NCBI GenBank assembly: GCA_964415895.1
Contig: CAYQCC010000004.1
Coordinates: 243-64,242 of the forward strand
Reading direction: 5' to 3'
Source: an uncultured Candidatus Saccharibacteria bacterium
GTDB taxonomy: Bacteria; Patescibacteriota; Minisyncoccia; Phycocordibacterales; UBA1006
Length of the DNA stretch: 64,000 nt
Positions 1,941 to 55,541 of this stretch are shown here, in pieces (positions within the stretch are counted from its first letter, which is position 1; every line of letters starts with the position of its first letter). The notes under the pieces were generated by a model. It was not told the DNA's origin, did no database searches, and was given only the letters and a program-made list of their open reading frames with translations. Both the position numbers and the translations under genes were made by a program.

Positions 1941-4900
1941 TTATTGTTTCTCTACTTTATTTTCTGCACTTGCCCAAACAATATTTTCCGCACCAACTGT
2001 TGAAAGTAGTTCGTCTTTCAATTCACTATTAGAAAACCATTGTGGCTCTGGAATTTCAAGGTGAGCAACAACTCGGTCAGATGGCATAAGATCTGCATCT
2101 TTTCGCATATCCTGGATCTGGCGAACCAAATCTCGCATGTCGCCTTCATCACGCAATGTGTCTGTGATTTCTGTGTCAAGTTCTACTGTTCCCTTTTCGA
2201 GTGTTTCCTTTACAACAACTTCTTTTACGTTCAATTCGTCTTTCACAATATCCAAGTAATCACTTGGAAGATCTGATTGTGAAATGAATAATGTTGCCAG
2301 TGGCTGTCGAACTTTTACATTTGATTTTTGTCGCGTTTCAAGTCCGAGCGTTACGATGTCGCGTACTGACTGCATTGGTACAAGCGTATCAGCAACCAAT
2401 GAAAAATCTCTCTTGTTATCAATCCAGTATTCCAAATGAACTGAAATTTCATCACGATCTTCATATCTCACCTTTGCAAATATTTCCTCTGCAATAAACG
2501 GCGTAAATGGCGCCATAGTAATCGCAATATTGCGCAAAATTAACCGCGTCACAACCAGCGCATCAATTCGATCCTGATCATTATCAGACTTGAAACGATC
2601 ACGACTGCGACGGATATACCATGTTGAAAGTTCGTTTATAAATTCACGGATTGCGCGCGCAGGCGTTAAAATATCATATGATTCCAGTCCTGTAGTGACG
2701 ATCTCTGCTAGTTCCTCATATTTTGCCAAGATCCACTTATCGAGAACATTTGTACTGTCATATGCATTGCGCTCGTTAGGACTAGGAAGTTGTGCTGGTT
2801 TATACATTTCATAAAAGCTCACAACATTCATCAGCGGATTAAATACTTTCTTCTTTACTTCATCGAGCGACTTCTCATCAAAGTTCTTTGTTTCACCTGG
2901 TTGGTTCACGCTATAGAACCAGAATCGTGCAACATCCGCTCCGTATTTCTCGAATACTTCCCATGGAGATACAATATTCCCTTTTGACTTTGACATCTTC
3001 GTTCCATCTGCTGCCATCAACAACCCCAAACAAATTACATTTTTATAATTGTTTGTCGGATTGTCATTTAGCAAGTTTGCAATTGCGTGCATGGTATAAA
3101 ACCATCCGCGCGTTTGGTCAACTCCTTCAGAAATGTAATCTGCTGGCAAAGGTTTAAAATCAATTGGCTCACCTAACATATGATTCTGCGCATATGCCAT
3201 TGCACCTGAATCAAACCATACATCCATAATTGCAGACGTACGTGTTAATTTTTCTCCATCAAGCTCGAGTTGAACTTGATCAATATATGGCTTGTGAAAA
3301 TCAAGTTCGTACTGTTCGTTTCTTGGAAGCAATGTGTAATTAATTTCTCGTATTTCTGCATTTTTAAAATTATTGTAGCTTCCTGGAACTTTTATCAAAT
3401 CAGCAAATGTAAATCCTTCCACAATCATTTCGATTGAACGAAGTGAGCTTCCATGTCCAACGATTAAAATATTTTTTCCTTGGTATGTCTTTTCAAATTC
3501 TTCCAACATATGACCAACGCGCGCAATCACCTCTTGGAATGATTCTGCGCCTTCGGATTTGAACGTGTATCGATTTTCCGCAGCATTACGAGCCTGGAAA
3601 AACAATTCTAAATCCTTCCATTGAAATTCTGGTCCGACATTCCATTCCAACATTCGATCGTCAGTTATAATTGCATTTTCATCCATTCCAAGAGTACTGG
3701 CAACGATTTTTGCAGTTTCCTGTGCACGAACGATTGGTGACGCAATGATTAGATCAATCTTTTTACCCTTAAGTGACTCTGCAGATTCAACAACCTGTGT
3801 TTGTCCCAGTTCTGTCAGATGATTATCAGGATTATTTGCAAAATCCCATACACCATATTTAAATCCACCCTCGATATTGCTTTGAGCTTGTCCATGACGC
3901 ATTAGTAAATATTTGTTTCCAGACTTCTTGGAATATTTTTTGATATCTTCAAGTGAGCCGATAACAACGCGCTTTGAAGCATCTGCGGTTTCCCATACAG
4001 GAATCGGAGTTCCCCAGTAACGTTCGCGGGAAATTGCCCAGTCTTTTATTCCATCAAGCCATTCGCCAAAGCGTCCCTCTTTGATATGGTCCGGCTCCCA
4101 GTTGACGTTCTCGTTTGCTGCGAGAAGCTTCTCTCGCAATGAAGACATGCGGAAATACCATGACCCGCGTGCGTAATACAACAAAGGCGTATTACATCGC
4201 CAGCAGTGCGGATAGCTGTGCAAGTAGTTTTCTTTCTTAAACAGTAAATTTCTGTCTGTTAGGTCATTGATGATATCGATCGCAAGTGTCGGCTTTCCAG
4301 ATTCATCACTTTGTTTTACATAGCGACCTGACAATTTTAGTGTATCTGTATCGCATCCGCTGAGATACTTTCCTTCCTCATTAACGACATGGAACTTTGG
4401 CAAATTATATTTCGTTCCGAGTTCAAAATCGTCCGCTCCGTACATGGGCGCAATATGAACGATTCCGGTTCCGTCAGTCGTCGTCACGAAATCTGCAGCA
4501 TACACCTGGAATGCGTTTTCAAGTTTTGATTTTTGATCTGCTGGAAGTAAGTTTGAAAGAAATGGAAAAAGTGGTTCGTATTTCAGACCAACTAAATCTT
4601 TTCCTTTAAAATTAGCTACGCATATTGATTTAAAAATATAATCATCTTCGTTCGAAGTTCCTTTTCTCTGTTCAATTCTCAAACCTATTGGATAATCAGC
4701 ACGTTCTGGAACATTTGGAAAACCGAATACTTTATGTACTAAATTAGAAGCTAAAATATAACGACCTGTTGGGATTGAGTCACTTTTAATAACGTCCCAA
4801 GCAGAATATTCAATCTCGCCCCCAACAGCAAGCGCAACATTTCCTGGAAGCGTCCATGGAGTGGTTGTCCAAGCTAGAATATGAGTACTATCGTCAATTT

Positions 4901-13829: not shown

Positions 13830-14393
13830 ATGCAACATGTTATAAACTATGCTTGTATGGAAACGCACTATGGAACAATACAAGCATTGATGTGTCTCCA
13901 ATATCCTGATGGTGGAATTGGATATTTGAACGATCTTATTTGGAAAGGACTGAAAGGTGACATGAAAATTTTCAAGGAGAAAACTGTCGAACACGTCGTT
14001 ATCATGGGACATGGAACATTTAGCAGTCTCGGATTTAAACCACTTCCTAATCGACAAAATATTGTAATAACCAGAGAGCCAAACGAACTCAAGGAATACG
14101 AACATATTCATATCGCAACTAATCCAATCGAGGCACTGCACTTGGCACGCAAGCAGTGGCCAAAAAAAGATATTTGCATTATTGGAGGTGCACAAATCTG
14201 TCGTGAATTACTTCCTTATTGCCAGAAACTATTTATCACAGAAGTGCATGGCAATAAAACTGCCGATACACTCATGCATTTGCCTGAAGGATTAATCGAA
14301 ATATCTCGAGAAAAAGGACCAGACGAGACATATGAATATTTCTTTGTCGAGTACAAAAATCCAAATGCATTAGAAATTCCAGAAGATAAATAA
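13830..14393 (+). CDS. folA: Dihydrofolate reductase
   Basis: GIGYLNDLIWKGLKGDMKIFKEKT...VIMGHGTFSSLG...LPNRQNIVITR...IGGAQI matches the DHFR core. Start uncertain (13779, 13830 or 13854). Confidence 0.7.
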   Translation: MQHVINYACMETHYGTIQALMCLQYPDGGIGYLNDLIWKGLKGDMKIFKEKTVEHVVIMGHGTFSSLGFKPLPNRQNIVITREPNELKEYEHIHIATNPIEALHLARKQWPKKDICIIGGAQICRELLPYCQKLFITEVHGNKTADTLMHLPEGLIEISREKGPDETYEYFFVEYKNPNALEIPEDK

Positions 14394-14422
14394 AAAACAC
14401 CAATTGGTGTTTTTTATTTGAT
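14394..14422. terminator. Bidirectional intrinsic terminator between folA and rplK
   Basis: aaaaaacaccaattggtgtttttta: palindrome flanked by A- and T-runs between convergent genes. Confidence 0.6.
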
Positions 14423-14976: not shown

Positions 14977-15525
14977 TTAAATCTTCTTCACTTGCACGAA
15001 ATCAAGTTCTACTGATGTTTCTCGTCCGAACATAGAAACCATCACTTTTACTTTTCCTCGGTCGTGGTCAACTTCTGAAACGCGACCTTCAAAATCTTTG
15101 AAAGGTCCGTCATTAATGTTAACAATTTCTCCTGGTGCAACTAATATTGTGTGTTTTGCTTTTTCAGCACCTTCCATTCGTGAGAACAAGAAATTAATCT
15201 CCTCTTCTGAAACGGCAACAGGCGTTGTTCCTGAACCAACGAATCCGGTAACACGTGGAGTGTTTCGAACCACATACCAACTGTCATCGTCTACAATCAT
15301 ATCTACTAATACGTAACCTGGGTAAATACGATCTTCAACTTCGATTTTTTTATTTCCTTTAATCTTTACAACTTTTTCAGTTGGTACAACAACATTGAAA
15401 ATCTTTTCAGTCATTCCTAAAGATTCTGCACGTTGCTTTAAATTACGCATTACTGCGTTTTCATATCCTGCATAAGTATGGATCGCGTACCAATTGCGAC
15501 CCTGTTGCATTTCTTGTCGTGACAT
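14977..15525 (-). CDS. nusG: Transcription termination/antitermination factor NusG
   Basis: WYAIHTYAGYENAV NGN domain and C-terminal KOW. Confidence 0.9.
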   Translation of the reverse strand: MSRQEMQQGRNWYAIHTYAGYENAVMRNLKQRAESLGMTEKIFNVVVPTEKVVKIKGNKKIEVEDRIYPGYVLVDMIVDDDSWYVVRNTPRVTGFVGSGTTPVAVSEEEINFLFSRMEGAEKAKHTILVAPGEIVNINDGPFKDFEGRVSEVDHDRGKVKVMVSMFGRETSVELDFVQVKKI

Positions 15526-15557: not shown

Positions 15558-15743
15558 CTATTTAGCAATCAACACTTGGAGTATCTTGTTGAAAATTCCA
15601 TCGAATAATCCCAAGTAAAATCCAACTGCCACTGAAAGAACAATCACAATTGCTGTGTGTCCTAATGCCTCGGTTGGTGACAACCAAGTTGTTTTTTTAG
15701 CTTCGCTACCGACGCCTTTAAAAAAAGTAATCACTGAATTCAT
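15558..15743 (-). CDS. secE: Preprotein translocase subunit SecE
   Basis: About 61 aa from MNSVITFFKGVGSEAKKTTWLSPTEA plus a single TM helix. Sits directly upstream of nusG. Confidence 0.7.
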   Translation of the reverse strand: MNSVITFFKGVGSEAKKTTWLSPTEALGHTAIVIVLSVAVGFYLGLFDGIFNKILQVLIAK

Positions 15744-15824
15744 AATGGTGTGAATATAGCAGAAAATCCAGTAAAAGTCTAGTTTTAGTGATTTATGAGT
15801 GAGTTCAACTAAAAAACTCAAAGC

Positions 15825-15942
15825 AAATATCGAGATTCGAGGACCGAACCCGCAGCACCATAGGTGCGTGAGGGCGCTTGCGTTCCGCAGAATCGAGAGA
15901 TTGCTTTGAGTTTTTTAGTTGAGTGACCTTATTTTGTCTCTG
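15825..15942. repeat. 22-bp perfect inverted repeat flanking a 74-nt core (long hairpin / possible structured RNA or MITE-like element)
   Basis: tcaactaaaaaactcaaagcaa (15825-15846) is the exact reverse complement of 15921-15942. The loop contains an internal hairpin GCACCataGGTGC. Confidence 0.6.
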
Positions 15943-16333
15943 GATTGCAATTCTTACATTTACACCCTTTTGGTTTGATATGTTCGTCAAAAAATTCTTC
16001 GCCGTAATTGTAGGTCAATTCTTCGCCTTCCTTGATATTAGTGAACGCATAAATAAAGATATGGTCACGCACATTCAGCGCATCGCAATTCCCTTGTCCA
16101 CATTGATGATTGATATAACGTGCCTTGTTATAGCGAGGCGATCCGTCGATCGTCCACTTTGAATTAATCTCGAACAAATACTGGCCACCGCGTTTTTGAG
16201 CTTCAGCATCAGTAATTTTCTCACCAATATATTCAATAATTTTTGTATCTTTTGCAATATCCTGTCCTGCGAACAATCCCATTCCTGCATAAGATCTTTT
16301 TACGTGTACCAGTGGTTTTTTCATACGAAACAA
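15929..16333 (-). CDS. SET-domain protein (putative protein-lysine methyltransferase)
   Basis: GMGLFAGQDI, RYINHQCGQGNCDA (NHxC), ELTYNYG and post-SET CKCKNC. Confidence 0.75.
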   Translation of the reverse strand: MFRMKKPLVHVKRSYAGMGLFAGQDIAKDTKIIEYIGEKITDAEAQKRGGQYLFEINSKWTIDGSPRYNKARYINHQCGQGNCDALNVRDHIFIYAFTNIKEGEELTYNYGEEFFDEHIKPKGCKCKNCNPETK

Positions 16334-16416
16334 TCATACCAGATGCACAAAAAAAGTCACCTTATAACAAAATGACTTTTTCTTATGAAATAAAGAATGT
16401 ATATTTATTGATGTAA

Positions 16417-21478: not shown

Positions 21479-21492
21479 TTCAGAAATAAAAC

Positions 21493-21520
21493 AAAAAAAG
21501 CACCTAGGTGCTTTTTTTGT
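21493..21520 (+). terminator. Intrinsic terminator
   Basis: aaaaaaagcacctaggtgcttttttt. Confidence 0.65.
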
Positions 21521-21792
21521 TTTATTTTTTCTTGTCTTTTTTAGGTTTTTTCACCTCTTTTCGAGAATCTTTTCCTTTTGCCATACGCGGTTTGAAATGA
21601 TTAGGCTTGTAATAGACTTATTATATCATAATTCAAATTATGCAAAAAATTCATAACTAATTTATTAGGCCATGAGACGATTATTGTATCCATTATTAAT
21701 GAATCGCTTAATTTAAATTAATTATGTACATGAGAACAACTCATCCAGCAGGAACCATTATTCACATCGCGTTAATGTCCAAAAGATAGCTT

Positions 21793-22095
21793 ATGTTTCG
21801 CATTATTGCAATTGCTCGAGGGTTCGAGAATGATAACCCTTATACAGCAATGAGCCACCTGCGGTGGCGCGATCCTGAAACAGGACAGACAGGAATTATT
21901 TCTCGTATAGAAGCGTACCAGTACCTGAAAGGGCAACCATGGTCGCTGTATGTCGAGGACACAACGGGTATGAGACATTATCTCATGCCGATAGAAAGCG
22001 ATTGGGGTGTATGCCATGTGCGAACCGTATCGGAGGATTTGGATGCCGACGAGCAGGACATGGATCCACTACTTTCCCTTCCCGAGTTTCTTTAA
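21793..22095 (+). CDS. DUF3892-like protein
   Basis: 100 aa. The central RWRDPETGQTGIISRIEAYQYLKG segment and C-terminal acidic tail resemble DUF3892. Confidence 0.5.
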   Translation: MFRIIAIARGFENDNPYTAMSHLRWRDPETGQTGIISRIEAYQYLKGQPWSLYVEDTTGMRHYLMPIESDWGVCHVRTVSEDLDADEQDMDPLLSLPEFL

Positions 22096-22097
22096 AA

Positions 22098-22124
22098 CAA
22101 AAACTGCTCAAAGGCAGTTTTTGT
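22098..22124. terminator. Bidirectional intrinsic terminator
   Basis: aaactgctcaaaggcagttttt between convergent genes. Confidence 0.55.
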
Positions 22125-22125
22125 T

Positions 22126-23370
22126 TTAAGCAGATTTTCCTGCTACAAATCCAGTCGTCCAGCACAATTGCAATCCGTATCCACCAGATGGTCGGTTAAT
22201 ATCCAAAAGATCGCCTGTAATGTACAGATTCGCAATCTTTTTTGATCGCATTGTTTTTGTATCAACTTCTGACAAATGAATTCCGCCATCAGCAACGACT
22301 GCGCGATCAAATCCCATCAGCCCTGTAATCGTCACAGGAAGTGCTTTCAGTAATCGCGTGATCTGCTTACGTTCATCTTTTGTCACACTGTGGACCTTTT
22401 TTGTGAAATCAATATCTGTAAAATGTGACTCAAGAACGCTTGCGGTTCCAGTCGGAACCAGATCCTTGAACACAGTTCGCAAGTTTTTATTTTTGTTCGC
22501 ATCAAACAACTCAATTGCGCGCGCCTCGAACGCGCTGATATCATTCCACGGACAGATATCAATCAATGCCGTTACGGTTCCTGCATGCAATAAATCCGAT
22601 ACTTTACTCGCGCTGTTTAAAATAGTCGGACCTGACAATCCAAAATGAGTAAACATAATTCTTCCCGTTTTCGAAAATGACTTTTTTCCATCAAGCATGA
22701 ATGTAACCTTTGCATCGTTAATAGAAATGCCAGCAAGCTTATGTATCCATTCGTCGCTTACCGCAAGCGGAACGATCGACGGTGTTGGATCTTTTACCGT
22801 GTGGCCGAGATCTTTTAAAAGTGCAAAGCCATCGCCTGTTGCACCTGTTTCAGGATGTGATAATCCACCTGTTGCCAGTATATATGAATTACCTACCACA
22901 ATTCCTTTTGTTGTTTCAACGCCAGTGATTGAATTCCCATCGCGAAGCAGTTTTTTCACGCTCGTTTGAGTTTGTATAGCAACTCCTAATTTCTCAAGTT
23001 CATTTTTTAACAAATTCGTTACGTCTACTGCTTTTTCAGATTTGGGAAATGCTCGTTTCAATGCCTGCACTACTAATGACATTCCGCGTGACTCGAAGAA
23101 ATCAAACGTATCCTGGACAGAGAATTGCGAAAATGGAGAATATAAAAACGGAGCTGCTTCATTATAGATTGCAAGAAACTTTTTTACATCAGATTCTGCA
23201 TTCGTGATATTACAGCGACCACCACCAGTGATATCCAATTTCCGCCCAAGCGTTTTGTTTTTCTCAAGGATGACAACACGTTTTCCTAATTGCGCCGCAG
23301 AAATAGCAGTCATCATTCCTGATGCCCCCCCGCCTATTACTACTACGTCGAATTGTTCGGATTGAGTCAT
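22126..23370 (-). CDS. HI0933-family NAD(P)/FAD-dependent flavoprotein (aminoacetone-oxidase-like)
   Basis: FDVVVIGGGASGMMTA FAD-binding site, then LDITGGGRCNITN. Confidence 0.8.
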   Translation of the reverse strand: MTQSEQFDVVVIGGGASGMMTAISAAQLGKRVVILEKNKTLGRKLDITGGGRCNITNAESDVKKFLAIYNEAAPFLYSPFSQFSVQDTFDFFESRGMSLVVQALKRAFPKSEKAVDVTNLLKNELEKLGVAIQTQTSVKKLLRDGNSITGVETTKGIVVGNSYILATGGLSHPETGATGDGFALLKDLGHTVKDPTPSIVPLAVSDEWIHKLAGISINDAKVTFMLDGKKSFSKTGRIMFTHFGLSGPTILNSASKVSDLLHAGTVTALIDICPWNDISAFEARAIELFDANKNKNLRTVFKDLVPTGTASVLESHFTDIDFTKKVHSVTKDERKQITRLLKALPVTITGLMGFDRAVVADGGIHLSEVDTKTMRSKKIANLYITGDLLDINRPSGGYGLQLCWTTGFVAGKSA

Positions 23371-27285: not shown

Positions 27286-27325
27286 AGATTATAAAACCCA
27301 TCTTTTAAAGATGGGTTTTATAATC
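27286..27325. terminator. Bidirectional intrinsic terminator
   Basis: attataaaacccatcttttaaagatgggttttataat is a perfect 16-bp stem between convergent genes. Confidence 0.75.
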
Positions 27326-28481
27326 TAGGATACAATGTCTTTAATTGAGAATAATGCTGATTAAAATAATTCATATGAAGCGAGGCTAGTCCTTCATAAA
27401 AAGTGTTCTGATCGGTGTTTTTTGGCATTTTGTTGTCTTCCAAATAATTATGTAATATAAAGCTGATAGCGGCTTTCATGTCAGTATTATTATTATTCGC
27501 ATATTGAACTGCTTCGTGCAATCTTGCCTGGATTTCAGTAGGGTGTGTCGCATGATCTTCAAAAATGTACGTTGCCCTGAATGCATCTTTCCACACTTCT
27601 GGCATAACTACAATCTGATGCGCATGCGTATGCTCATGAACCATAATACGCTCCAACTCTTCTAGAGCGCTTTTATAATTAAGAATATTTCCTTTCACTG
27701 TTGCATAAGACGTTCCAGCATCGCCTCCGCCTCCGCCATTCCTGACTACTTTGTCAGCATTATTATCTAAAACAATTTCAAAATTCACCCTTCTTAATGC
27801 CTGCCAGAGCGTATTGGCTTCAATAGGAAACGTGGAATCTTCAAGAATTGTATTATTACTGTAAACAGTTTTTTGTAATGTTTTATAATCAATTTTATTT
27901 ACTGATATTCGTATAATTTCTCCCTTGTTCTCGTTCTGTTGTAAGACAGTTTCTAATGAGCTTTTAATTGTATTAAAAACTGGCTGCACCTCATACCACA
28001 CATCCAAGTAATCATGTGAATAATCATCTCTAGCCTCTATTCGATTCTCATTTACTACATCAAGGGGCTTAGTAAAAGGTTCCTTTCCTCGCAAAGATCT
28101 TACTTTTTCTTTTATAGATGTTATAAGCGAATATCTACCTTCCAAATGTGCTGTAGGATCTACAACTGCTTCGCGTGTTCTTCGCTTTTTGTAAAAATCC
28201 CTCATTACCTCGATTTGACCAGGAAGGAAATCTTCGTGAGACATCCCTTCAAAGATAGCCAATGACTCAGATTCTTCAATGCCAAGTTCTTGTCTTAGCT
28301 CCTTAATCTTTTGTTCGCTTTTCTGTTGATTTGTCTCTTTCAAGGTCACAGGATATTTTTCTTCTTGCTTCGCACCATCTTGATCATAAAAAATCTTACT
28401 TTCTTTGAAATCTATGGCGGCTTTGTTTTTCTCGATAAAGGGTGGCTTTTCCATGAATACAGTATACCAAGTTGCATGCAT
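27318..28481 (-). CDS. Hypothetical protein with HExxH motif (possible Zn-metallopeptidase)
   Basis: MVHEHTHAHQ contains HEHTH. GGGGGDAG linker. No other recognisable domain. Confidence 0.35.
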   Translation of the reverse strand: MHATWYTVFMEKPPFIEKNKAAIDFKESKIFYDQDGAKQEEKYPVTLKETNQQKSEQKIKELRQELGIEESESLAIFEGMSHEDFLPGQIEVMRDFYKKRRTREAVVDPTAHLEGRYSLITSIKEKVRSLRGKEPFTKPLDVVNENRIEARDDYSHDYLDVWYEVQPVFNTIKSSLETVLQQNENKGEIIRISVNKIDYKTLQKTVYSNNTILEDSTFPIEANTLWQALRRVNFEIVLDNNADKVVRNGGGGGDAGTSYATVKGNILNYKSALEELERIMVHEHTHAHQIVVMPEVWKDAFRATYIFEDHATHPTEIQARLHEAVQYANNNNTDMKAAISFILHNYLEDNKMPKNTDQNTFYEGLASLHMNYFNQHYSQLKTLYPRL

Positions 28482-29257: not shown

Positions 29258-29331
29258 GGGGGACTATCGGGAATCGAACCCGAATTGCGGGATCCACAAA
29301 CCCGAGTGTTAACCGTTACACCATAGTCCCC
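29258..29331 (-). tRNA. tRNA-His (GTG)
   Basis: Cloverleaf with extra 5' G(-1), D-arm GTGTAACGGTTAACAC, anticodon loop TTGTGGA, T-arm TCGGGTTCGATTCCCGA. Confidence 0.85.
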
Positions 29332-29745
29332 ATATCGTAAACAAAAGCCCCGAAATAATTGAAAATCGAGACTTCAGTTCATGTGTTGATACACAACTTG
29401 TCGATATATCGGATTTTTCTTGGAAACAATCTCCTAAAAATAAATGCAATTGGCATACATTTTTAGAGGATCATTGGGAGGAAATCCTTAACGACATTAA
29501 AAGAATTGCTTCTTTGGACGAAATCTCAATACAAAAGTTATCATACAATAAGGCAGCATAAATTGCAAATATCCCACTTAATATTATTCAAATATTAGTC
29601 TTTGTTAAAATCATCAACTATGGATTGATAGTTTCTAATAATTTCATCTAAATCTTCTTTGAAATCTTTTAAAGCACTTAAAGGTGAAGTAGGATTATAT
29701 TGATGAGGTAATGGAACGAATGATTTTTCATTTAACGTATTCTTA

Positions 29746-30327
29746 TTAAGACCTTGCAAAGTATGTGCTATTCAAGTGAATAAAAGCATCTTCAAAACTT
29801 CTTGCATGGTAAGCATTTTCTTCTTGTTGGTAGCATAAACATAAAGTTGAATCCCCAATTTTAATTGTTCTTTGTTCTACTGTCAAAATCTTAACATCTT
29901 CCCAAGAAATACCTGGCAAAAAATGTAGTAAAGCTGAGTTACTTGTTGCTGTACCATTATTTACAGGACAAGCCTCAATAACAACATTTCCTTTTTTATC
30001 CTTATTACCTATATCGCCTTTAGAATCTATATCTGTAATTACCAAAGATTTAATTCCTAAAAACTCGATAAATTTTTCAAAAATCTGTGAATAAGCTCCG
30101 ACCTCTATAATTGAAATATTTTGTGAAAGTAGCGGTAAAAATGGGTCTTCTGTTCCTACTGCAACATGGATTTTTTCTTCCTCTATATCAATCTTTTTCA
30201 TCACAGTTGGAATGAGAATTCTTTCAGTATCGCCCTCTATCAAAACAGCTTTATCGGCAAAGAAAATTTCGGCTCTACTAATTGTCAAATATTGTGTTAA
30301 GAACTGATACTGTGTTGTGCCTAACAA
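29746..30327 (-). CDS. Toprim-domain protein resembling the C-terminal nuclease module of OLD/Gabija GajA (N-terminally truncated)
   Basis: VLIEGDTERILIP and VITDIDSKGD (DxD) Toprim motifs. No ATPase upstream. Confidence 0.5.
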   Translation of the reverse strand: MLGTTQYQFLTQYLTISRAEIFFADKAVLIEGDTERILIPTVMKKIDIEEEKIHVAVGTEDPFLPLLSQNISIIEVGAYSQIFEKFIEFLGIKSLVITDIDSKGDIGNKDKKGNVVIEACPVNNGTATSNSALLHFLPGISWEDVKILTVEQRTIKIGDSTLCLCYQQEENAYHARSFEDAFIHLNSTYFARS

Positions 30328-30789
30328 AACATATTATTATGTTCGTTAATATGTTATATGGAACAGATAGATACAACCATCACAAATACACATTTATAGG
30401 TATTTGAAATGTAATAATACTTTTATACATTTAATCTTTACAACAAACGAACAAACTAAATTTAAGAAATACAGTTGCACCAAACTATTGGATGTAGAGT
30501 TCTTTAACATATTTAGTTGTTCAGATTTCCAAACTACTTTTTTGAGAATACATTTTTACTACGTCATGTTTTGGCGTTCATCTAATGCATATTTGTATCA
30601 AATAAATAATGTATGAATCTCTACGCAAAAAAACACATTCGGTTAAAAAACAAAAATGACTTCTTAGTTTTTTAACTATTATAAAATTAACGTGGTCTTA
30701 TAAAGTGTTAAGATATTAGTTTTCACACAATATAATAAAACGCGTATCGTTATTAGAAATAAATTGCATCATAAAATAAAAATACATCC

Positions 30790-31170
30790 ATGAAAAATCA
30801 GAAAGCATATTCCGTCATTGTCAGTTTAATTCCTGCGGTGCAAGCAATACTCGACACCTTTAATGCAGCACAGGTAAGTGATGCACTGCGCATGTACATT
30901 GGTGCGCTACTAATCTTGCTTATCATCGTAATGCAAGGCATACAGATATACCTCAATCCAAGCATCAAAAATAATGCTCTTTGGGTAAGTGTGGTAGCAC
31001 TCATTGGATACATTGCAGGTGGCATAATGGACAACCTTAATGTGATACCTATGAGCGAAGAAGTAGCCAGTGTTATTCGGTTAGTATTTTCTTTGTTCGT
31101 AGTCATTGCCAATGCCATTGTGAGAGAATACAACACTGTGGAAGACAAATTAAAAATAAATATAAAGTAA
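30790..31170 (+). CDS. Hypothetical membrane protein (3 TM)
   Basis: 126 aa, hydrophobic helices. Could be holin-like. Confidence 0.3.
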   Translation: MKNQKAYSVIVSLIPAVQAILDTFNAAQVSDALRMYIGALLILLIIVMQGIQIYLNPSIKNNALWVSVVALIGYIAGGIMDNLNVIPMSEEVASVIRLVFSLFVVIANAIVREYNTVEDKLKINIK

Positions 31171-32248
31171 AAATTCCCTTTAAAGTATTCTGTCATTTTG
31201 TTTGTCTTGCTAAATATATAGGAAGATTGTTTCGGTGCTAAATCTTTTGCTACATTCAAATTTTAAATTATTGAAGACTTGAGTTTTTATAAACATTATA
31301 ATTATGTAAGCGTGAATCTTGAAATTTCTCTTGCGAACTAATAAAAATAATTGTAAATTACAAGTACAACCAAGTGAAAAATAAAAATTATTCTTATGAA
31401 ATATTATAACAACAAAACAGCATTAACATCAATAAGTCCACTAAGAAAAATTTATACTAATACGCCAATTATATATGTACAGAAGATTTGATTTAATAAC
31501 AATATTAGTTAGCTATACTTTGTATAGAAAAGTCGTATGCACTCTGTGTACGGCTTTTTTTTATTCTAAAAATTTAAACCAATATAATTTATGGTGAAAT
31601 AAAAGACAAAAAAAACCAGGGTAAACGATAGAGAGTTTAAAACCTGGCTTTATATGATTAATTTTTGCTGCAACATTAAATTAATCTCAACTATAAAGCT
31701 ACCACACTTAAAGATATAACACAAGTCTTATTTATCGACACTGTTTATTTAGTTTATATCTAAAGTTGCCAATCTCTAATATTTACCTTATAATTTGTCT
31801 AATTGATATTGATAGAACTATCGGTTCAACAAACATTTATCAAAATTAAAACTGCAAAAATGGTAAGATTTTACAATTCTTATAATCCAATACTGACTAA
31901 AAAACAGATAGCATCTTGTGTAAATAAACATTGTGTTATTTGTAAAGGAATTATTAATGAATTTTATTGTTGTAATTGTTTTGAAGGACCGAGCATATTG
32001 CAGCTACAAATTAAAAAAAGCCATCAAGATTACTTCTTTATGGATGGTTCAGTTAAGCCAGTAATTATAAAAATCAGAAACTTAGGTTTTGGAATGATAA
32101 ATTTTAATTAAAATTCAATTAATATGGGGCTAAAGATACAGTTGGTATGATTATTTATGTAAATTTGTAATAATAGAAATTAAGTGTTAGGCTTAGTTGT
32201 TTAATGTTTTAATTAGCCTAATTATTTTTTGCTGAATAAAACCACACT

Positions 32249-33205
32249 ATGAAAATATTTAGAATTAAAGTCGAAAATTACAGACTACTTAAAGACTTTT
32301 CTATTGACTTAGAAGAAGATTTATCGTTAGTTATTGGTAAAAACAATACAGGCAAGACATCACTTCTTACCATTTTAGAAAAGTTTTTAAATCATTCTGA
32401 AAAAACTAAATTTTCCATTGATGATTTTAATATTGAATTTAAAAAGAGTCTTGCAGATCTTGTAGTTGATAATATCCAAATTGTTGAAACTGATTTTGTA
32501 CAAATAGGTATAAAACTTAAAATTTTCATTCAATACAGTGATAAGGATGATTTGTCCAACATTAGTAGGGTTATGATGGATCTTGATCCTGATAATAATG
32601 TTGTTGTGTTAGGATTTGAATACATCTTAGATTATGACAACTATTTAAAGATAAGAAGCGAATACTTAGTGTTTGATGACAAAGAATCAGTAAAGGAGCG
32701 TGAGGACACAACTGGCATGTATAAAAAATTAGACGTATATAGTTTTTTAAAACAAGAACATAATAAGTTTTTTATAACAATCAAAAAGTCCATTGCATAT
32801 GATATTGGCGCAGATGACACCCTTGATAAAATATTTATCAATTTAGATAAAGAAAATGTCGGTATCAAAGATATTATAAATTTCAAATACATAAGTGCAA
32901 GACGTGATGTAACCAACAAGGATTTTGATAAGACTTTATCAAAACAAACGTCAATAATTTATAAAAGAACAGAGGAAAATGAAGAAACAAAGGAAGCTAC
33001 GGAAAAATTTAAAGACCAGTTAACCGAAACAGATAGACAGTTAAGTACTATTTATGTTGATTTATTCGAAGAAGTTATTAAAAAGGTTAGAATTTTTGGT
33101 GGAATAAAGCTTAATGAATCTGAAATTGAGATAATCTCAACATTACAACATAGAGAACTTTTATCGAATGCTGTTTTTAATGGTTGCATAGCACTTAATA
33201 TTTAA
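32249..33205 (+). CDS. AAA_15/OLD-type ATPase N-terminal fragment (truncated before Walker B)
   Basis: KIFRIKVENYRLLKDFSIDL...LVIGKNNTGKTSLL Walker A and Lys-rich helical insert. Ends without a DEPE/Walker B region. Confidence 0.55.
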   Translation: MKIFRIKVENYRLLKDFSIDLEEDLSLVIGKNNTGKTSLLTILEKFLNHSEKTKFSIDDFNIEFKKSLADLVVDNIQIVETDFVQIGIKLKIFIQYSDKDDLSNISRVMMDLDPDNNVVVLGFEYILDYDNYLKIRSEYLVFDDKESVKEREDTTGMYKKLDVYSFLKQEHNKFFITIKKSIAYDIGADDTLDKIFINLDKENVGIKDIINFKYISARRDVTNKDFDKTLSKQTSIIYKRTEENEETKEATEKFKDQLTETDRQLSTIYVDLFEEVIKKVRIFGGIKLNESEIEIISTLQHRELLSNAVFNGCIALNI

Positions 33206-33316
33206 GTCTTGACTATGCCAGTGGCCAATGGTATGAGGTACCACCCAATTTGGCAAATAATTTATTTTAGTATATGATACTCTACAAAGGTTGCCACTGG
33301 CTGAAAATTGGTTGGC

Positions 33317-33355
33317 AATCTTGGCCATACAACGGTGAGACGTTGTATGGCTTTT
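33317..33355 (+). terminator. Intrinsic terminator
   Basis: ccatacaacggtgagacgttgtatgg plus ctttttttg. Confidence 0.55.
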
Positions 33356-34013
33356 TTTGTATATGGAAAATACCTTTAAAAACAAGGGTTTTGAGCTAAC
33401 CGCTATGTGTGCGACTGCATAAGCATTGAGTATGCTAAAGGTTTGTTTTGATGATATTTGAGCCATAACTATCATAATCATGGTCAAAAATACAGGCGTA
33501 AAATGACGCATTTAAAATCTATGAGTCATTAAATGACTCATTTTAAATAGCTACTTAGAAGATAGTGCTAAAAGAAACTGCATAAAAAAAATATGAACCT
33601 ATTGCGGAATTAATAAATAAGGTTTACATTGAATTATAAATTCAAGATTATGTCAAGCTTAATGATTAATTCTCCACCATAATAATATAACCATAACTAG
33701 GTAATATTAAAAACAGTTTGCAAAAACTTGACATTTCAAAACACAACTATCATGACATAAACACAAAAATACAAGCATAGAAAATAGATTCAACTACTGT
33801 TAGGATTTCTATGTCCAAATTTTTGCATGATTTATTTTTTGAAATAGCAAGTTTAGCTACTGAACTTGTTATGGTTAAATTAATACATATAAAAAATGCT
33901 TTCTTACAATATTCTTGTGAGAAAGCATTTTTTATATATTCTTTAGAGTATACACAACCTGCATTTAGTACAATTCCGTTTCAAGGTATTCTTAATGCTA
34001 AAATTCAATACTT

Positions 34014-34634
34014 ATGGTAAGTAGAGAATTTAGCATATTAGATTTTGAGCAACAACCATTAAATGTTGCTATAAAGAATGAATTTCACTCTCTGGTTGAA
34101 ACATGCTTTAAAGATGATAGTCTACTTTTTGCCTATTTAGACTTAAAAGAAATCTACCATACAAGCGGATTATCGGAATTGTATTTGTTCACTGACAATA
34201 AAAATATATTACAAGGATTCGATAAAGAATACGCTGTTATGCTTGAGCAAATAGATAAAGAAAATGAACGACTTTACACATATCAAGGATGGTTTAAAAA
34301 ACTAAAAATTCGGAAAGCTAAAGGAACTCAACATCTTTTAGAAAATAAAGAGCAAATAGAATTTACATGGATTGAAACTCGAAAATCAAGAATACAAAGT
34401 GATTTTGCTACTGATATCCATTTCCAAGATGCTAGTTTAGCAAATTATGCAAATGACTATTTTTCTAATATGCAAGACTTAATTCTTAATAAGTTTCCGT
34501 ACTCATTAACTGTAATTCTTCCTATATACATAATTAGAAATTCACACCTAATTCCTTGTGCTGATTTGAGAATAAATTTAGGTACAAATATAGACATCAC
34601 CGTTTTCATAAAAATCTGCTATTTTAAAAATTAA
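34014..34634 (+). CDS. Hypothetical protein
   Basis: 206 aa ORF in the AT-rich island. No motif recognised. Confidence 0.3.
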   Translation: MVSREFSILDFEQQPLNVAIKNEFHSLVETCFKDDSLLFAYLDLKEIYHTSGLSELYLFTDNKNILQGFDKEYAVMLEQIDKENERLYTYQGWFKKLKIRKAKGTQHLLENKEQIEFTWIETRKSRIQSDFATDIHFQDASLANYANDYFSNMQDLILNKFPYSLTVILPIYIIRNSHLIPCADLRINLGTNIDITVFIKICYFKN

Positions 34635-35207
34635 GTCGTTTACTCTAGCGATATCTCTAACTAGGTCTACAGTAAATTTATTTGTGACAGACAACACATC
34701 TGAACGATACAATATATTCTGATTTTGAGTTTCTTCATCGCCAATCCAATCAATTAATAATTCAAGTCCATAAAATTGCGCAAGTCTGCCATTTAAATCT
34801 GCTAACATGGAGATTGTTTTTTCGCTTTTATCACTTGGTTCTTCAAGATTAACGATAGGTCTAGAGGTAATAATAGTAGCCTGACTTGCAGAAATTATTT
34901 TATATATTGACATAAGAGTGTCGGAAAACTTGACACTCACAACAAAATTTCTGTATAATTCTAAATAATATGCATAATAAACTGCAAATCTTTTTGCTTC
35001 AAATTCGATAGGGTGTAAAAAACCATATGATGGATAATTCGCTAATATTTTATTTTGAAATTGCGTAAAATAATTTGTAGAACTTTCTATTCTTACGTTC
35101 AGTAGTTCTTTATCTCTAATGGTTTTTTCAGAATTTTCTGTTTCTAAGAGTTTAAGTAGTTCTTGATAGATTTGTTCTATCGAATCAGATGTAATGTTAT
35201 CATTCAT
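34578..35207 (-). CDS. Hypothetical protein
   Basis: 209 aa ORF, convergent with and overlapping the previous ORF. Confidence 0.3.
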   Translation of the reverse strand: MNDNITSDSIEQIYQELLKLLETENSEKTIRDKELLNVRIESSTNYFTQFQNKILANYPSYGFLHPIEFEAKRFAVYYAYYLELYRNFVVSVKFSDTLMSIYKIISASQATIITSRPIVNLEEPSDKSEKTISMLADLNGRLAQFYGLELLIDWIGDEETQNQNILYRSDVLSVTNKFTVDLVRDIARVNDLIFKIADFYENGDVYICT

Positions 35208-35289
35208 ATTTTATGGTTTCAAATAAAAAAGGAAATAAAGATATTAAAATAATCTTTATTTCCTATAATTTTTTAAATAGTTTATTAAA

Positions 35290-35511
35290 CTATTTGGCGT
35301 TTAGTAAAGTTAAAGGTGCAACAATGTCTGGATGACTGCACAAGCCTATTGATTTAACTTTTAATGAATCAACCTCTTTATTTTTGAATTTAAGCCAATC
35401 CGGTCGGGTGACCGTATGGTTAAACTCAATGGTTACTGGTGATTCGGAGCCGTTTAGAATCCTTAATCTAGTAGGATTAAAAAAATCTAAAATTTTTTGT
35501 GAAGCTGCCAT
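35290..35511 (-). CDS. Hypothetical small protein
   Basis: 73 aa ORF. Confidence 0.2.
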   Translation of the reverse strand: MAASQKILDFFNPTRLRILNGSESPVTIEFNHTVTRPDWLKFKNKEVDSLKVKSIGLCSHPDIVAPLTLLNAK

Positions 35512-36189
35512 TTTTTAATTGTTTTAGTTTTTATAATTTGGTTCTTTTATAGTTTTAATTTTGGTTCAATGGTAACCTACCCCCCCCTTTTTTTTATTAA
35601 ATTTTTATAATTTTGGACTGCAAAGATACGATAAACAATTTTATTTACATAATGTAATTTTTTTTGCACAAATTGTTTATTACTTGCTCTAAATTGGATT
35701 GTAATATAATTATTAATTTAAAGCAAGTCCTTAAATACGCGATTCCATTTCTCTACATTTTCTTCGAATCTTTTGCACATTTTTCGATGCAATTTTACAC
35801 ATCAATTTAAACACTTTTAAACTTTGATTTAAACACCTGTGGACAAGCATTTGATATTCACCAACCTATAACGCCTAAATATCTAAAAAAGTATTTAAAA
35901 TCTGTTAAATTATAAGAACAATATTAAAATTAGCTAGGATTTAAGGGTTTATGTTACACAATTTAATAAATATTTTGCAAAAATAAGACCTGTTTTTCTC
36001 AAAGTCAAAATTTAAAGATGAATATTTAGTGTCCTTGAGATGTAATTATACTCTCTTATTGCTAAAATAATGTCCTATTCTTTTCTTTTTTTGGCACAAA
36101 TTAAACTAAATAACACTACTCACATATATATGCGCCTTATACAGAACAATACATTTTTTAATAAAAACTTGCCCTCTCGGGCAAGTAAA

Positions 36190-37452
36190 CTATTTCTTAG
36201 TTCTCTTTTTAGTTTTGGTATTTGGTTGTTTTGTTTTCTGCATAGCACTCATTACCAAATCCGTAGCATCATCAATCATTTTATTTGGCAATGTGTCAAG
36301 ATAGATTTGCGTGGTCTTAATAGATTCATGCCCTAACATATCGCTAATATCAGCAATGGGAATTTGGATGTGTTTTGCAATAGTAGCGAATGAATGTCTG
36401 GAAACATACGATGTTAAATTCTCTTGTATTCCACACAAGGTTGCAATCTTTTTTAGCTTCTTGTTGTACCTGCTACGTGCCCACTTAACTTGTCGATACT
36501 GTTCCTCTGGAGTTGCTTTGGTAATAATTGGAAAGATGTAGTCATCTTTTTCTTCTGATGGGTACTTGTCTAGTATCTGTTGCACATTTGCGGTTATTCT
36601 AATTGTGTAAGGTTTATCTGTTTTTTGACGCTCATAAATGATACGACCATCAATAAGGTTCGACCATTGTAAATGTGCCATATCTGCAAAAGGCATACCA
36701 CGAGTATAAAAGCAAAACATAAAATAGTTATGCGAGTTGTAGAGCGGATGATTGGTTTCGAACTTCAATTCCTCAATGGCTTTAATCGCTGTTGTACTGA
36801 TAGCGCGTTTGCGTGTTTTTTTTGTCTTAATCTTGTAGTTGGTAAATGGATACAGATCTCGCTCAACAAGCTTCGCTTTGATAGCGTTATTGAATACGGC
36901 TCGGATGGTGCGCATATACACAGCAAGTCCATTTAAGCTGTTGCCTTTGATGATGTGGTGCTGTTCAAGTTTTACAAGAAATGAGTGAGTAATGTCGGTA
37001 AATGTAAGCTCTCTATTATTAGAAAAGGTACGCAGAACACTAATGACGCCTTCGTAAGAACGAGCACTGCTAAATCTTTGTGTCTTTTTCATATCAGCAA
37101 TCATGTTTTCTGTATATTTGAAAAAGGAAAGATTATTTGACTTTTCTATGAGTTCTTTGAGTTGCGTGATGGTGAGCGTTTGAAGTGTTTTCTTTTCGTC
37201 TAATTTAGAAATGATGTCGAGTGCTTCGGCAACTTTCTTGCGATGCTGGTTGTTAAGCCTAGTTACGGATTCTGTACCATTATAAGAAGATTTTATAAGA
37301 TGTTTGGTGTCGTCCCAGTCTTTTAGATGCAGCGATAAGCCGAGCGGAATTTGTGAAGATTTCCTATTATGGACAATGCGCATAATGAGTGGAAATGTGC
37401 CATCGGCTTTTTTTACTCGTGTATCGAGGACAATAAGTGCGTTTGTTTTCAT
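36190..37452 (-). CDS. Tyrosine-type site-specific integrase (phage/CTn integrase family)
   Basis: C-terminal catalytic motifs RHSFATIAK, LGHESIKTTQIYLD. N-terminal arm-binding and SAM-like domains. 420 aa. Confidence 0.85.
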   Translation of the reverse strand: MKTNALIVLDTRVKKADGTFPLIMRIVHNRKSSQIPLGLSLHLKDWDDTKHLIKSSYNGTESVTRLNNQHRKKVAEALDIISKLDEKKTLQTLTITQLKELIEKSNNLSFFKYTENMIADMKKTQRFSSARSYEGVISVLRTFSNNRELTFTDITHSFLVKLEQHHIIKGNSLNGLAVYMRTIRAVFNNAIKAKLVERDLYPFTNYKIKTKKTRKRAISTTAIKAIEELKFETNHPLYNSHNYFMFCFYTRGMPFADMAHLQWSNLIDGRIIYERQKTDKPYTIRITANVQQILDKYPSEEKDDYIFPIITKATPEEQYRQVKWARSRYNKKLKKIATLCGIQENLTSYVSRHSFATIAKHIQIPIADISDMLGHESIKTTQIYLDTLPNKMIDDATDLVMSAMQKTKQPNTKTKKRTKK

Positions 37453-37463
37453 TTGGTTCTGTT

Positions 37464-37868
37464 TTAAAAATGAGGAAATCTATTCACAAGCAGCTCACAA
37501 GCAAAAGTACATTTCAAACAATATCGAATCATATCAAATAACACCAAAGTTAATACTTGCTGTAAACACCCAATTTTCTTATTCACAATATCATTGGCAT
37601 TTAAACATTTCAATTCATCGATGATGTTTGGAATGCGCATCTGCAGGCGTTTGATAAGTAATTTTTTCTGTTCAGGGAAAAAGGAATCGAAAGGGGTTTT
37701 GTAAATAATGTGATAAAGCAACATCAATTCTATTTGCGGATGCATATCGCTTGTTTCGTTGCGTGAAACTTGAATTACATCTTGTGTGCCAAGTAATTCA
37801 GAAATATCTTGTTGGTTAAAAATGGAATGTTTACGATGATTTCGTAAATGATGATTAATAGGTTTCAT
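37464..37868 (-). CDS. Hypothetical protein (upstream of integrase)
   Basis: 134 aa. No motif recognised. Confidence 0.25.
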   Translation of the reverse strand: MKPINHHLRNHRKHSIFNQQDISELLGTQDVIQVSRNETSDMHPQIELMLLYHIIYKTPFDSFFPEQKKLLIKRLQMRIPNIIDELKCLNANDIVNKKIGCLQQVLTLVLFDMIRYCLKCTFACELLVNRFPHF

Positions 37869-38016
37869 AAAATATTTTCATTAGTTGATAATATTCCTAT
37901 GATATTAAAAATGGATAAATACAATATGAGGGCGAAATTGCATATGGCTGTCTTTAAAGTAATAACCGCACGTTGGTTGCGTGGATATTAAAATCCACGC
38001 TTCACAAAACTTGCGG

Positions 38017-38523
38017 TTATTCAAATTGTATTTTCATCTTATCTATCAACGACTGTTGCAAAACTTGCAAGCGTTCAATGTTTTCATCAGATTTCTTTTG
38101 TATTGTTTTTCTTTTTAAAGTATTTCTTTTGTTATGTTCGCAATCACGAACAAGTCTTATTCGTGATTGCGAACAAGTCATGTCGCAAATGCGAACAAGT
38201 CGAGATTCATAAAAAAGAAGTGGATGTCCTCTTCGTTCATGTGCTTGATGCAGTTCAGTCTCCTTTCCATCTGTTACGACAAGTAAACTCTTGTCTATTA
38301 AACTTTGAATTGTTTTTGAGAGTACTGTCCTATACAATCCTGTCTTTTTGAGAATGAAGCTGTAACTTAGTCTGTCCTTTATTTTCCGCTTTCCTGTTTT
38401 GCTGTCTATCCACCCAACAGTTTGGCGAAGCACAATTAATAGCACACGAAGTTCTGCGTGTGTAAGTATTGGAATATGTTCAAAAAGTTCATTAGGTACT
38501 GGCGTAGTGTTCTCAAGTGACAT
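38017..38523 (-). CDS. Putative replication initiator / DnaD-like winged-helix protein
   Basis: LTHAELRVLLIVLRQTVGWIDSKTGKRKIKDRLSYSFILKKTGLYRTVLSKTIQSLIDKSLL is typical of phage/plasmid Rep wHTH. Contains internal iteron-like DNA repeats. Confidence 0.45.
   Translation of the reverse strand: MSLENTTPVPNELFEHIPILTHAELRVLLIVLRQTVGWIDSKTGKRKIKDRLSYSFILKKTGLYRTVLSKTIQSLIDKSLLVVTDGKETELHQAHERRGHPLLFYESRLVRICDMTCSQSRIRLVRDCEHNKRNTLKRKTIQKKSDENIERLQVLQQSLIDKMKIQFE
38140..38212. repeat. Iteron-like direct repeats plus 11-bp inverted repeat inside the Rep-like gene
   Basis: Three copies of cgaacaagtc and the palindrome gcaatcacgaa...ttcgtgattgc. Confidence 0.55.
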
Positions 38524-38592
38524 GAAAACTACAGTACACGAGGAAATTTGAATACAATATGAATGCTTTTTTGCTGATGCAAAAATTGCCTT

Positions 38593-38820
38593 ATGTTGTG
38601 TAACAAAAAATGGAGATATGGTGCAAACATGGAAGAAATTCTCGCAATGGAAAAAGATGTAAAAAAGCTGATTTTAGAAGAAGAAAAAAATCTTCTAAAT
38701 TCAGGCTTTACACAAGAGGATATAACGATACTTTATGAGGCATTGGAATATATAGCATACCCTGTCATTGCAGAGTATTGTGAGCATGGAACGATTACAG
38801 ACATTGACGAAATCGAGTAA
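38593..38820 (+). CDS. Hypothetical small acidic protein
   Basis: 75 aa. Confidence 0.25.
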   Translation: MLCNKKWRYGANMEEILAMEKDVKKLILEEEKNLLNSGFTQEDITILYEALEYIAYPVIAEYCEHGTITDIDEIE

Positions 38821-38873
38821 ATTTTAGACTATGATATACTTTCTTTATTATCAGCGAATAACTCTATTGATCT

Positions 38874-40424: not shown

Positions 40425-40471
40425 GTCACCTGCTCCCAAAGCAGGCATGTTAGCCGTTACACCACATCTCG
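40399..40471 (-). tRNA. tRNA-Pro (TGG)
   Basis: Acceptor CGAGATG/CATCTCG, anticodon arm CCTGC-TTTGGGA-GCAGG, T-arm CAGGGTTCGAATCCCTG. Confidence 0.8.
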
Positions 40472-46382: not shown

Positions 46383-46454
46383 GCCCTTGTAGTTCAATGG
46401 ATAGAACAGGAGACTTCTAAGCTCTTAATCGAGGTTCGATTCCTCGCGAGGGCA
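46383..46454 (+). tRNA. tRNA-Arg (TCT)
   Basis: Anticodon loop CTTCTAA, D-arm GTTC-AATGGATA-GAAC, T-arm CGAGGTTCGATTCCTCG. Confidence 0.8.
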
Positions 46455-46560
46455 CATTCAAGGCCGACGCGGAGGCCTCAAAAACCTTAGCAAATCTTTA
46501 TCTTTTCATTATGTATATTTCGTAATTATTTTATGGTAAGGTTCCATAATATATCCGTAT

Positions 46561-51228: not shown

Positions 51229-51233
51229 CTAAG

Positions 51234-51306
51234 TGCCCTCGGCAGGACTCGAACCCGCATCTTCCTCAGTAGAACAGAGGCACCCTATCCATTGGACCAC
51301 GAGGGC
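51234..51306 (-). tRNA. tRNA-Arg (probable TCT anticodon), second divergent copy
   Basis: Acceptor GCCCTCG/CGAGGGC, T-arm GCGGGTTCGAGTCCTGC, anticodon arm CCTCT-GTTCTAC-TGAGG with a T-T closing mismatch. Only about 70% identical to the tRNA-Arg at 46383 (aligned by eye) and higher GC. Confidence 0.6.
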
Positions 51307-55520: not shown

Positions 55521-55541
55521 GTAATACCACGCTACGACATA

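Follow-up and report, generated by a model that had tools for sequence, protein, structure and literature searches.

What is the long inverted repeat that separates a SET-domain gene from secE in the window (the whole 64,000-nt stretch of DNA analysed here), and what is the tRNA-sized segment that it encloses? From the sequence alone, the first-pass annotation had proposed a small stable RNA within an RNase III processing stem, a degenerate tRNA or a MITE. Our analysis places the repeat in a family of copies with a conserved centre, and leads us to prefer the explanation of a copied, structured module in a terminator-like palindrome.

The inverted repeat and its surroundings

The perfect 22-bp inverted repeat with its 74-nt spacer was confirmed, both by direct reading of the window and with a repeat finder (22 of 22 positions complementary), as was its placement between the SET-domain gene and secE. 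The arm coordinates originally given (15825-15846 and 15921-15942) are wrong by 20; the true arms lie at 15805-15826 and 15901-15922 (TCAACTAAAAAACTCAAAGCAA / TTGCTTTGAGTTTTTTAGTTGA, 100% complementary). The right arm does not overlap the stop codon of the SET gene, as had been claimed, since the stop occupies 15929-15931, 6 nt from the arm. The inner hairpin of the spacer, GCACC-ATA-GGTGC, is present as described, on the plus strand at 15855-15867. The repeat is far beyond chance: the number of arm matches expected was 0.00 (100 shuffles of the window), and the arm sequence is unique within the window. The 128-nt segment folds with an energy of -54.7 kcal/mol on the minus strand, compared to -26.0 +/- 3.1 for shuffled sequences (z = -9.2), and of -57.9 kcal/mol on the plus strand (z = -8.3), with shuffled values of about -26 to -29 over both strands. 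The G+C content of the 74-nt spacer is 0.49-0.54, versus about 0.3-0.4 in its surroundings.

The local genes are all on the minus strand: the SET-domain gene upstream of the element (15929-16333; Pfam SET, E = 1.5e-22), secE downstream (15558-15746; the orthologous ORF in relatives encodes a 61-aa PF00584 SecE protein), followed by nusG (14977-15525) and then rplK. The element of the window is within the 3' untranslated region of the SET gene, and no promoter-like site was found in the window between the SET stop and the element. Downstream of the element, secE has a promoter-like site of its own (15753-15781, minus strand; -35 TAGACT, 17-nt spacer, extended -10 TG-n-TATATT; ATG at 15746), a motif that is kept in the relatives L002-L009. 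The extended -10 of secE (TGCTATATT) ends at 15753 and the -10 of the SET gene (TATGAT) at 16333, both on the minus strand. Because these promoter-like sites (15746-15781 and 16324-16360) stand only about 6-9 nt before the start codons, their sequence suggests that the secE and SET mRNAs are leaderless or near-leaderless.

Read on the minus strand, the element opens with the outer 5' arm at 15901-15922 (UCAACUAAAAAACUCAAAGCAA, with an A6 run), followed by the inner 5' arm (15893-15900; UCUCUCGA), the conserved 5' block of the core (15868-15892; UUCUGCGGAACGCAAGCGCCCUCAC, including a possible mini-hairpin CGC-AA-GCG), a variable apical hairpin, P5 (15855-15867; GCACC-UAU-GGUGC), the conserved 3' block of the core (15836-15854; UGCGGGUUCGGUCCUCGAA), the inner 3' arm (15827-15835; UCUCGAUAU) and the outer arm that is the 3' arm in the sense of the genes (15805-15826; UUGCUUUGAGUUUUUUAGUUGA, with a U6 run, 22 of 22 positions complementary to 15901-15922). 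The core is thus 57 nt long (15836-15892, minus strand reading). The inner 3' arm is degraded in the window copy, with three uncompensated changes; in the near-identical strain L208 its counterpart (UCUCGAGAGAU) pairs fully with the inner 5' arm, and the stem is unbroken up to the core, for a total of 34 pairs. The 15805-15826 arm sequence is specific to this locus, being found elsewhere only in contigs of the same species (L208 and L243).

The arms resemble the ordinary terminators of the window genome, which are perfect 13-23-nt palindromes with an A-run/stem/T-run layout, and exceed the length of their stems. Perfect 16-22-nt palindromes of this layout, with loops of 0-6 nt, are seen at gene ends in the window genome, for example at 21484-21527, 27286-27326, 14388-14419 and 22092-22129; they are probably bidirectional intrinsic terminators, and their perfection suggests a DNA-level homogenising process. 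At the element itself, where the 'loop' is 74 nt, a scan for consensus terminators called none. A U-rich tract is nevertheless found within or 3' of the 3' arm in most copies of the family described below.

A family with a conserved core and locus-specific arms

We scanned metagenome contigs with a 19-base pattern of the 5' block (TTCTGCGNNNNGCAAGCNNCCTCAC), built from the core of the window and that of a syntenic copy in the relative L003. The scan returned 18 loci, 10 of them true members, and a covariance model yielded one extra copy, on contig L202. The element is a member of a family of 13 copies, which stand for about 10 independent loci behind unrelated genes of Patescibacteria-like bacteria; the GC content of the host contigs is 35-59%. 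Its conserved blocks are near-invariant, TTCTGCGGAACGCAAGCGCCCTCAC and TGCGGGTTCGGTCCTCGAA being separated by the variable hairpin, and the consensus order on the minus strand is a locus-specific stem, UUCUGCGGAACGCAAGCGCCCUCAC, P5, UGCGGGUUCGGUCCUCGAA and the other strand of the stem, the conserved unit ending in TTCTGCG ... CTCGAA. The 3' block, which was absent from the search pattern, is present in every pattern-found member that reaches that far, and is invariant in all of the type-A copies that reach it except for one U>C in L204. Type-A cores are 0-1 substitutions apart, with the sole exception of a CAAG-to-CTTCG loop change in one of the L202 copies (L202b), where the mini-hairpin reads CGC-UUC-GCG. 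A second subtype, type B (L003 and L216), differs at about a dozen positions, some of them compensatory, and has the mini-hairpin AGC-AA-GCU. P5 varies from 9 to 84 nt across copies and differs in sequence, but always folds.

This family was previously uncatalogued and is absent from Rfam 15: at gathering thresholds, only the tRNAs of the window were matched and nothing at the element. At E<=10, a 400-nt slice (15650-16050) gave no meaningful match, and none to RF00005, while two other family members gave only spurious or generic-hairpin matches far below gathering scores. There was no match to hammerhead, twister, twister-sister, pistol, hatchet, HDV-like, SRP, 6S or Y RNA. In the literature that could be searched in full text, exact sequence strings included, there was no description of the element or its core, and the element is absent from a 2026 preprint on intergenic features. 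A viral origin was rejected, since neither scans of viral contigs (with a covariance-model search of the matches) nor blastn against phage and plasmid collections gave a member of the family. A coding role was likewise rejected: the lengths of the hairpins are not divisible by three and the reading frames of the two blocks are not constant, which marks the element as non-coding. Six-frame peptides of the conserved blocks, used to look for further copies through a protein index, gave 18 word candidates, none of them scoring.

Several resemblances of the core were pursued and dropped. Within the reverse complement of the 3' block, GAGGACCGAACC is identical to part of E. coli 23S rRNA, which raised the idea of an rRNA mimic or antisense RNA, together with a likeness of the type-B 5' block to helix h41 of 16S rRNA. 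The rRNA scores (24 and 23) fall within the null distribution of shuffled cores (mean 20.7; 6% at least 24), and the 23S match is lost in type B. LexA/Cheo-box-like CGAAC...GTTC halves and an outward promoter, considered in the core by eye, are not kept in type B. An integron attC site was also rejected, as the unit has the ends given above and not the R''/R' signature (RYYYAAC ... GTTRRRY), and its neighbours are housekeeping genes and not an integron integrase with a cassette array.

The extent of the copied unit can be read from comparisons between copies. The two copies on L202 are 2.4 kb apart and in opposite orientations; they have in common the core, differing only by the loop change mentioned above, and an 84-nt P5 insert that differs by 1 nt, whereas there is no relationship between their outer arms, which measure 23 bp in the complete copy. 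In L203, L204 and L210, whose hosts differ greatly, the arms have just their innermost 8-10 nt in common, with GTTTTT(T/G)CG on the 5' side in all three and, on the 3' side, CGAAAAA in L203 and L204 and CAAAAA in L210. It follows from these two comparisons that what is copied is the core with its own short stem, and that the outer arms are local and not part of the copied unit. A conserved centre with locus-specific arms is an unusual layout for such a family, for which function and mobility are what we infer. The 64-kb window has one copy, related loci totalling about 600 kb contain one, and a single 2.9-kb contig carries two.

At 10 of 11 loci the element is located just downstream of a co-oriented gene, the genes in question being those for SET, 6PGD-like, RsmI-like, ATP-grasp and TraG-like proteins and for the ribosomal proteins S2, L20 and L21, and an unnamed ORF (L206). 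The exception is L212, where its orientation is opposite to that of the neighbouring gene; at L216 a small terminator hairpin, distinct from the element, precedes it. Housekeeping genes surround the copies, none of them conserved across loci, and no transposase or mobilising gene was seen beside any copy. Copy L202a lies downstream of an ATP-grasp ORF (L202 1-1099, minus strand) that lacks a stop codon ahead of the element and stays open across core and insert as far as the end of the contig, so that the element may here have taken the place of a coding-region end.

The window belongs to a genome of Patescibacteria (Paceibacteria). The same locus was compared among relatives, the NusG matches being to MAGs of Patescibacteria (Paceibacteria/Parcubacteria), the best of them 99-89% identical. 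Besides the window's own species (L208 and L243), the only close relative with a homologous element in the SET|secE spacer is L003, whose copy was recovered by nusG-based locus retrieval. Its 20-nt perfect arms are wholly different from those of the window, but the core is recognisably the same, and its inner hairpin covaries with that of the window (GCCC/GGGC in place of GCACC/GGUGC). The same locus thus carries type B in L003 and type A in the window. In L002, L009 and L244, the spacer contains a plain palindrome, perfectly paired around a loop of 4-7 nt and flanked by an A-run and a T-run; L006 has a plain palindrome upstream of secE behind a different upstream gene, and the spacer is almost empty in L004, L005, L007, L008, L246, L247 and L250. 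The element is therefore present or absent among close relatives. No 'empty site' with the arms of the window, and no further syntenic copy, was found among SET homologues, eight contigs and the related loci, so that insertion of the module into a pre-existing palindrome is presumed rather than seen. The spacer of L248 (1669-1811) is occupied by an unrelated insert, palindromic and about 140 nt long, in which CCGGAAT repeats abound, and insertions of the hairpin type seem to have a hotspot in the SET|secE spacer.

Breaks in public assemblies coincide with these palindromes or fall close to them. In the closest genome (L001), an N-run spans the element (about 3166-3266), a Logan contig identical to the window (L243) has its position 1 inside the apical hairpin, and contig L249 ends in Illumina adapter sequence (AGATCGGAAGAGCACACGTCT, 735-756) right after a terminator hairpin.

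Pairing is conserved throughout the family. Each of the 10 complete copies has an outer stem, of 19-34 pairs, whose outer sequence is peculiar to its locus; in most copies the stem is at least 20 bp long. In the model alignment 92.9% of cells are paired, compared to 80.4% after shuffling, double-change cells number 28 versus 8.3 in shuffles, and all slid controls collapse. The stems thus covary; this covariation is in the outer stem and in one core pair, the other core pairs being uninformative as they never vary. Between types A and B, compensatory changes are seen from GGA/UCC to GUA/UAC and from CGC..GCG to AGC..GCU. The core could fold either as a rod with internal loops or as a three-way junction that includes the mini-hairpin. 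When sequences are folded singly, neither strand is favoured overall, type B folding better in antisense; alignment folding gives equal energies for the two strands, and the mismatches in the arms would be G.U on either strand. We infer the sense strand only from the orientation of the genes and from one G.U pair (GCCC/GGGU). The inner stem diverges between subgroups and the 57 nt do not, which argues that the core itself, whose sequence is constrained, is under selection and not merely young. The near-perfect arms, their mismatches that would be G.U on either strand and the equal energies of the strands point the same way, and suggest that the perfection of the arms is maintained at the DNA level, for example by templated repair within palindromes, rather than by compensation at the RNA level.

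Explanations for the element

Taken as a whole, the best explanation, to which we give a probability of about 0.45, is that the element is a structured module at the apex of a terminator-like palindrome, copied from elsewhere and transcribed with the upstream gene. The module would be a hairpin of about 60-80 nt, consisting of the 57-nt core, its own short stem and an apical hairpin of free length and sequence. It would be lodged at the apex of a long, near-perfect A/U-rich palindrome, locus-specific outside and just past a stop codon, this host palindrome resembling the putative bidirectional intrinsic terminators of the same genome. Copying would occur between terminator palindromes, both from site to site and from genome to genome, catalysed by an enzyme or resulting from template switching or gene conversion between A-run/T-run hairpins. 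The element would be transcribed as the 3' end of the SET mRNA, with its 26-34-bp stem serving as a terminator and as a hairpin protecting the 3' end; the stem would also be long enough to be a substrate for RNase III. The invariant core would be a binding or catalytic module. A bolder form of this proposal, which we regard as unlikely, is that of a mobile hairpin, about 75 nt in size, which across Patescibacteria would home into the loop at the apex of intrinsic-terminator palindromes. It would constitute a 'hairpin-in-hairpin' class of mobile element, with the layout of MITEs and REPINs reversed, and its core would be a new small ribozyme or a recognition structure for a recombination activity acting on single-stranded DNA or RNA.

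A stand-alone small stable RNA, in which an RNase III stem would release a trans-acting RNA of 60-80 nt, is a somewhat unlikely alternative. Such an RNA could be part of a ribonucleoprotein, for example, or a regulator that base-pairs via an exposed CCUCAC segment. The RNase III reading is compatible with everything seen: 19-34 near-perfect pairs in all complete copies amount to the double-stranded stem of about two helical turns that it calls for, the hairpins covary, and the conserved core has some 45 near-invariant nucleotides across hosts of 35-59% GC, around a variable apical hairpin of the kind typical of functional RNAs with a dispensable stem. The copy at L216, behind a separate terminator hairpin, and that at L212, which is not behind a co-oriented gene and would need its own promoter, also fit an independent RNA. 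In the window, however, the SET stop is only 6 nt away with no promoter-like site in between, the element is absent from the same locus in sister species and has no conserved neighbouring gene, and the two copies on L202 lie only 2.4 kb apart. The near-perfect arms, with hardly any G.U pairs, also point to a process at the DNA level rather than to RNA-level compensation. A new small self-cleaving or otherwise catalytic ribozyme in mRNA 3' ends, with the invariant junction as its active site and the outer stem (P1) and P5 as structural elements, is improbable: the combination of invariant internal loops or junctions with variable but always paired stems is reminiscent of small ribozymes, and the copies occur in varied genomic contexts in sense orientation within transcripts, but none of hammerhead, twister, twister-sister, pistol, hatchet or HDV-like ribozymes shows any likeness at E<=10, no pseudoknot is supported by covariation, and a P1 of 20-34 bp is atypical for such ribozymes.

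The suggestion of a MITE, that is, a non-autonomous transposon whose arms are terminal inverted repeats for a transposase encoded elsewhere, proved right only in a loose sense, and in its classical form is quite improbable. What stands is the dispersal: other genomes carry the core at unrelated positions, and one contig carries it twice, so that it must be copied by some means, and relatives show presence/absence polymorphism; there is also a possible imperfect 9-10-bp duplication (TTATTACAA / TTATCTACAA) at the L003 copy when compared to L009. What does not stand is the anatomy: the arms differ from locus to locus, wholly so even within one contig, and only their inner 2-10 nt are common within subgroups, so that a conserved centre is found where a MITE or REPIN would have conserved ends. 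No consistent target duplication is seen (no adjacent direct repeat of more than 4 nt in 9 copies), the element is single-copy in 64 kb, and no transposase is nearby, the integrase and serine recombinase at 36-40 kb belonging to a tRNA-flanked island. At the other extreme, a plain large intrinsic terminator or chance palindrome, whose core has no specific function, would fit the position at a gene 3' end and the similarity of the arms to the A-run/T-run palindromic terminators of the genome. It is contradicted by the family data, since a 57-nt core has stayed nearly unchanged at about 10 independent loci of diverse hosts, a conservation for which the loop of a terminator offers no reason, and we consider it highly improbable. 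The idea of a decayed tRNA, specifically tRNA-Trp, or of another tRNA-like remnant is wrong and effectively refuted. The spacer is indeed tRNA-sized (74 nt) and the 3' block (GCGGGTTCGGTCC) looks like a T-arm (compare tRNA-Asp, GCGGGTTCGAGTCC), with a score, however, that is within the range of shuffled sequences. ARAGORN detected 5 tRNAs in the window, none of them at 15800-15930, it and the Rfam tRNA models were negative on both strands of the element, and the same core is found behind many unrelated genes. The absence of the 'usual' tRNA-Trp upstream of secE, on which the first-pass annotation had remarked, carries no weight, as among 77 related loci of Patescibacteria there is not one where a tRNA-Trp lies within 700 nt upstream of nusG.

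The preferred reading, a copied module in a terminator-like palindrome, has partial parallels in known systems, the nearest in mode of action being the intergenic repeats that form hairpins (Correia, ERIC, REPIN), together with rRNA intervening sequences or insertion sequences that target loops. Correia elements (CREE) of Neisseria and the ERIC/IRU elements of enterobacteria are, like the element described here, short non-coding sequences between genes, often located at gene ends; they are co-transcribed, their long hairpins are possible substrates for RNase III or terminators, and they are present or absent between relatives. MITEs have conserved terminal repeats, target duplications and tens to hundreds of copies, whereas our element has a conserved centre, locus-specific outer arms, no duplications seen and an apparently low copy number. 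REP/REPIN sequences, mobilised by RAYT, are similarly intergenic hairpins at gene 3' ends and possible terminators or mRNA stabilisers, but have the reverse layout, with conserved REP arms and a variable loop where ours has a conserved centre and variable arms; neither a RAYT gene nor a GTAG-type head motif was seen with our element. The intervening sequences (IVS) of 23S rRNA helices 25 and 45 are also structured inserts that take the place of the apical loop of an existing helix; their long stem is removed by RNase III, they are sporadic among operons and strains, and their origin is unknown. They differ in being found within rRNA genes, in their larger size and in lacking a core that is conserved across taxa, whereas our element occupies terminator-like hairpins after protein-coding genes. 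IS1397 and ISKpn1, which insert into the loop of palindromic units, are likewise foreign segments at the apex of a local palindrome, so that in both cases the flanking sequences necessarily form inverted repeats, different at every site; these are full-size insertion sequences with a transposase, however, and our element is non-coding and only 60-170 nt long. Lastly, orphan structured RNA motifs and Y-RNA-like RNAs share the arrangement of a variable closing stem, a conserved region of internal loops and helices and a variable apical module. In both, the conserved sequence is probably a protein-binding site. The element has no Rfam match and no Ro/Rsr-type gene or other conserved neighbour.

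Patescibacteria (CPR) make up a large share of bacterial diversity and have minimal genomes, and we know of almost no characterised non-coding RNAs or mobile elements from them. A near-invariant core of 57 nt in this group would be either a functional RNA module that catalogues have missed, which may bind a protein, act as a ribozyme or signal the processing of 3' ends, or a new route of spread via terminator loops. Either outcome would provide a handle on the biology of transcript 3' ends and on horizontal exchange in Patescibacteria. On the practical side, the element breaks assemblies.

Further features of the window

The region 29258-40471 is a probable integrated island, bounded by tRNA-His (29258-29330) and tRNA-Pro (40398-40471). 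Its genes include an OLD-like TOPRIM gene (29746-30327), an AAA_15 ATPase (32249-33205), a tyrosine integrase (36190-37452) and a large serine recombinase (38874-40424), the ORF of the latter overlapping the tRNA-Pro gene on the opposite strand.

A second inverted repeat, of a geometry similar to that described above, is found at 55364-55540. Its 20-nt arms (55379-55398 and 55474-55493) are 90% complementary and enclose a G+C-rich spacer of 75 nt, right after an extended -10 (TGCTATAAT, 55364-55372) and upstream of an ORF at 55542. It has no Rfam match at E<=1 and could be an unannotated small RNA or a leader. The window also carries two tRNA-Arg(UCU) genes, at 46383-46455 on the plus strand and 51233-51306 on the minus strand, which are inverted, about 4.8 kb apart and have clearly different bodies, an unusual redundancy for a minimal genome.
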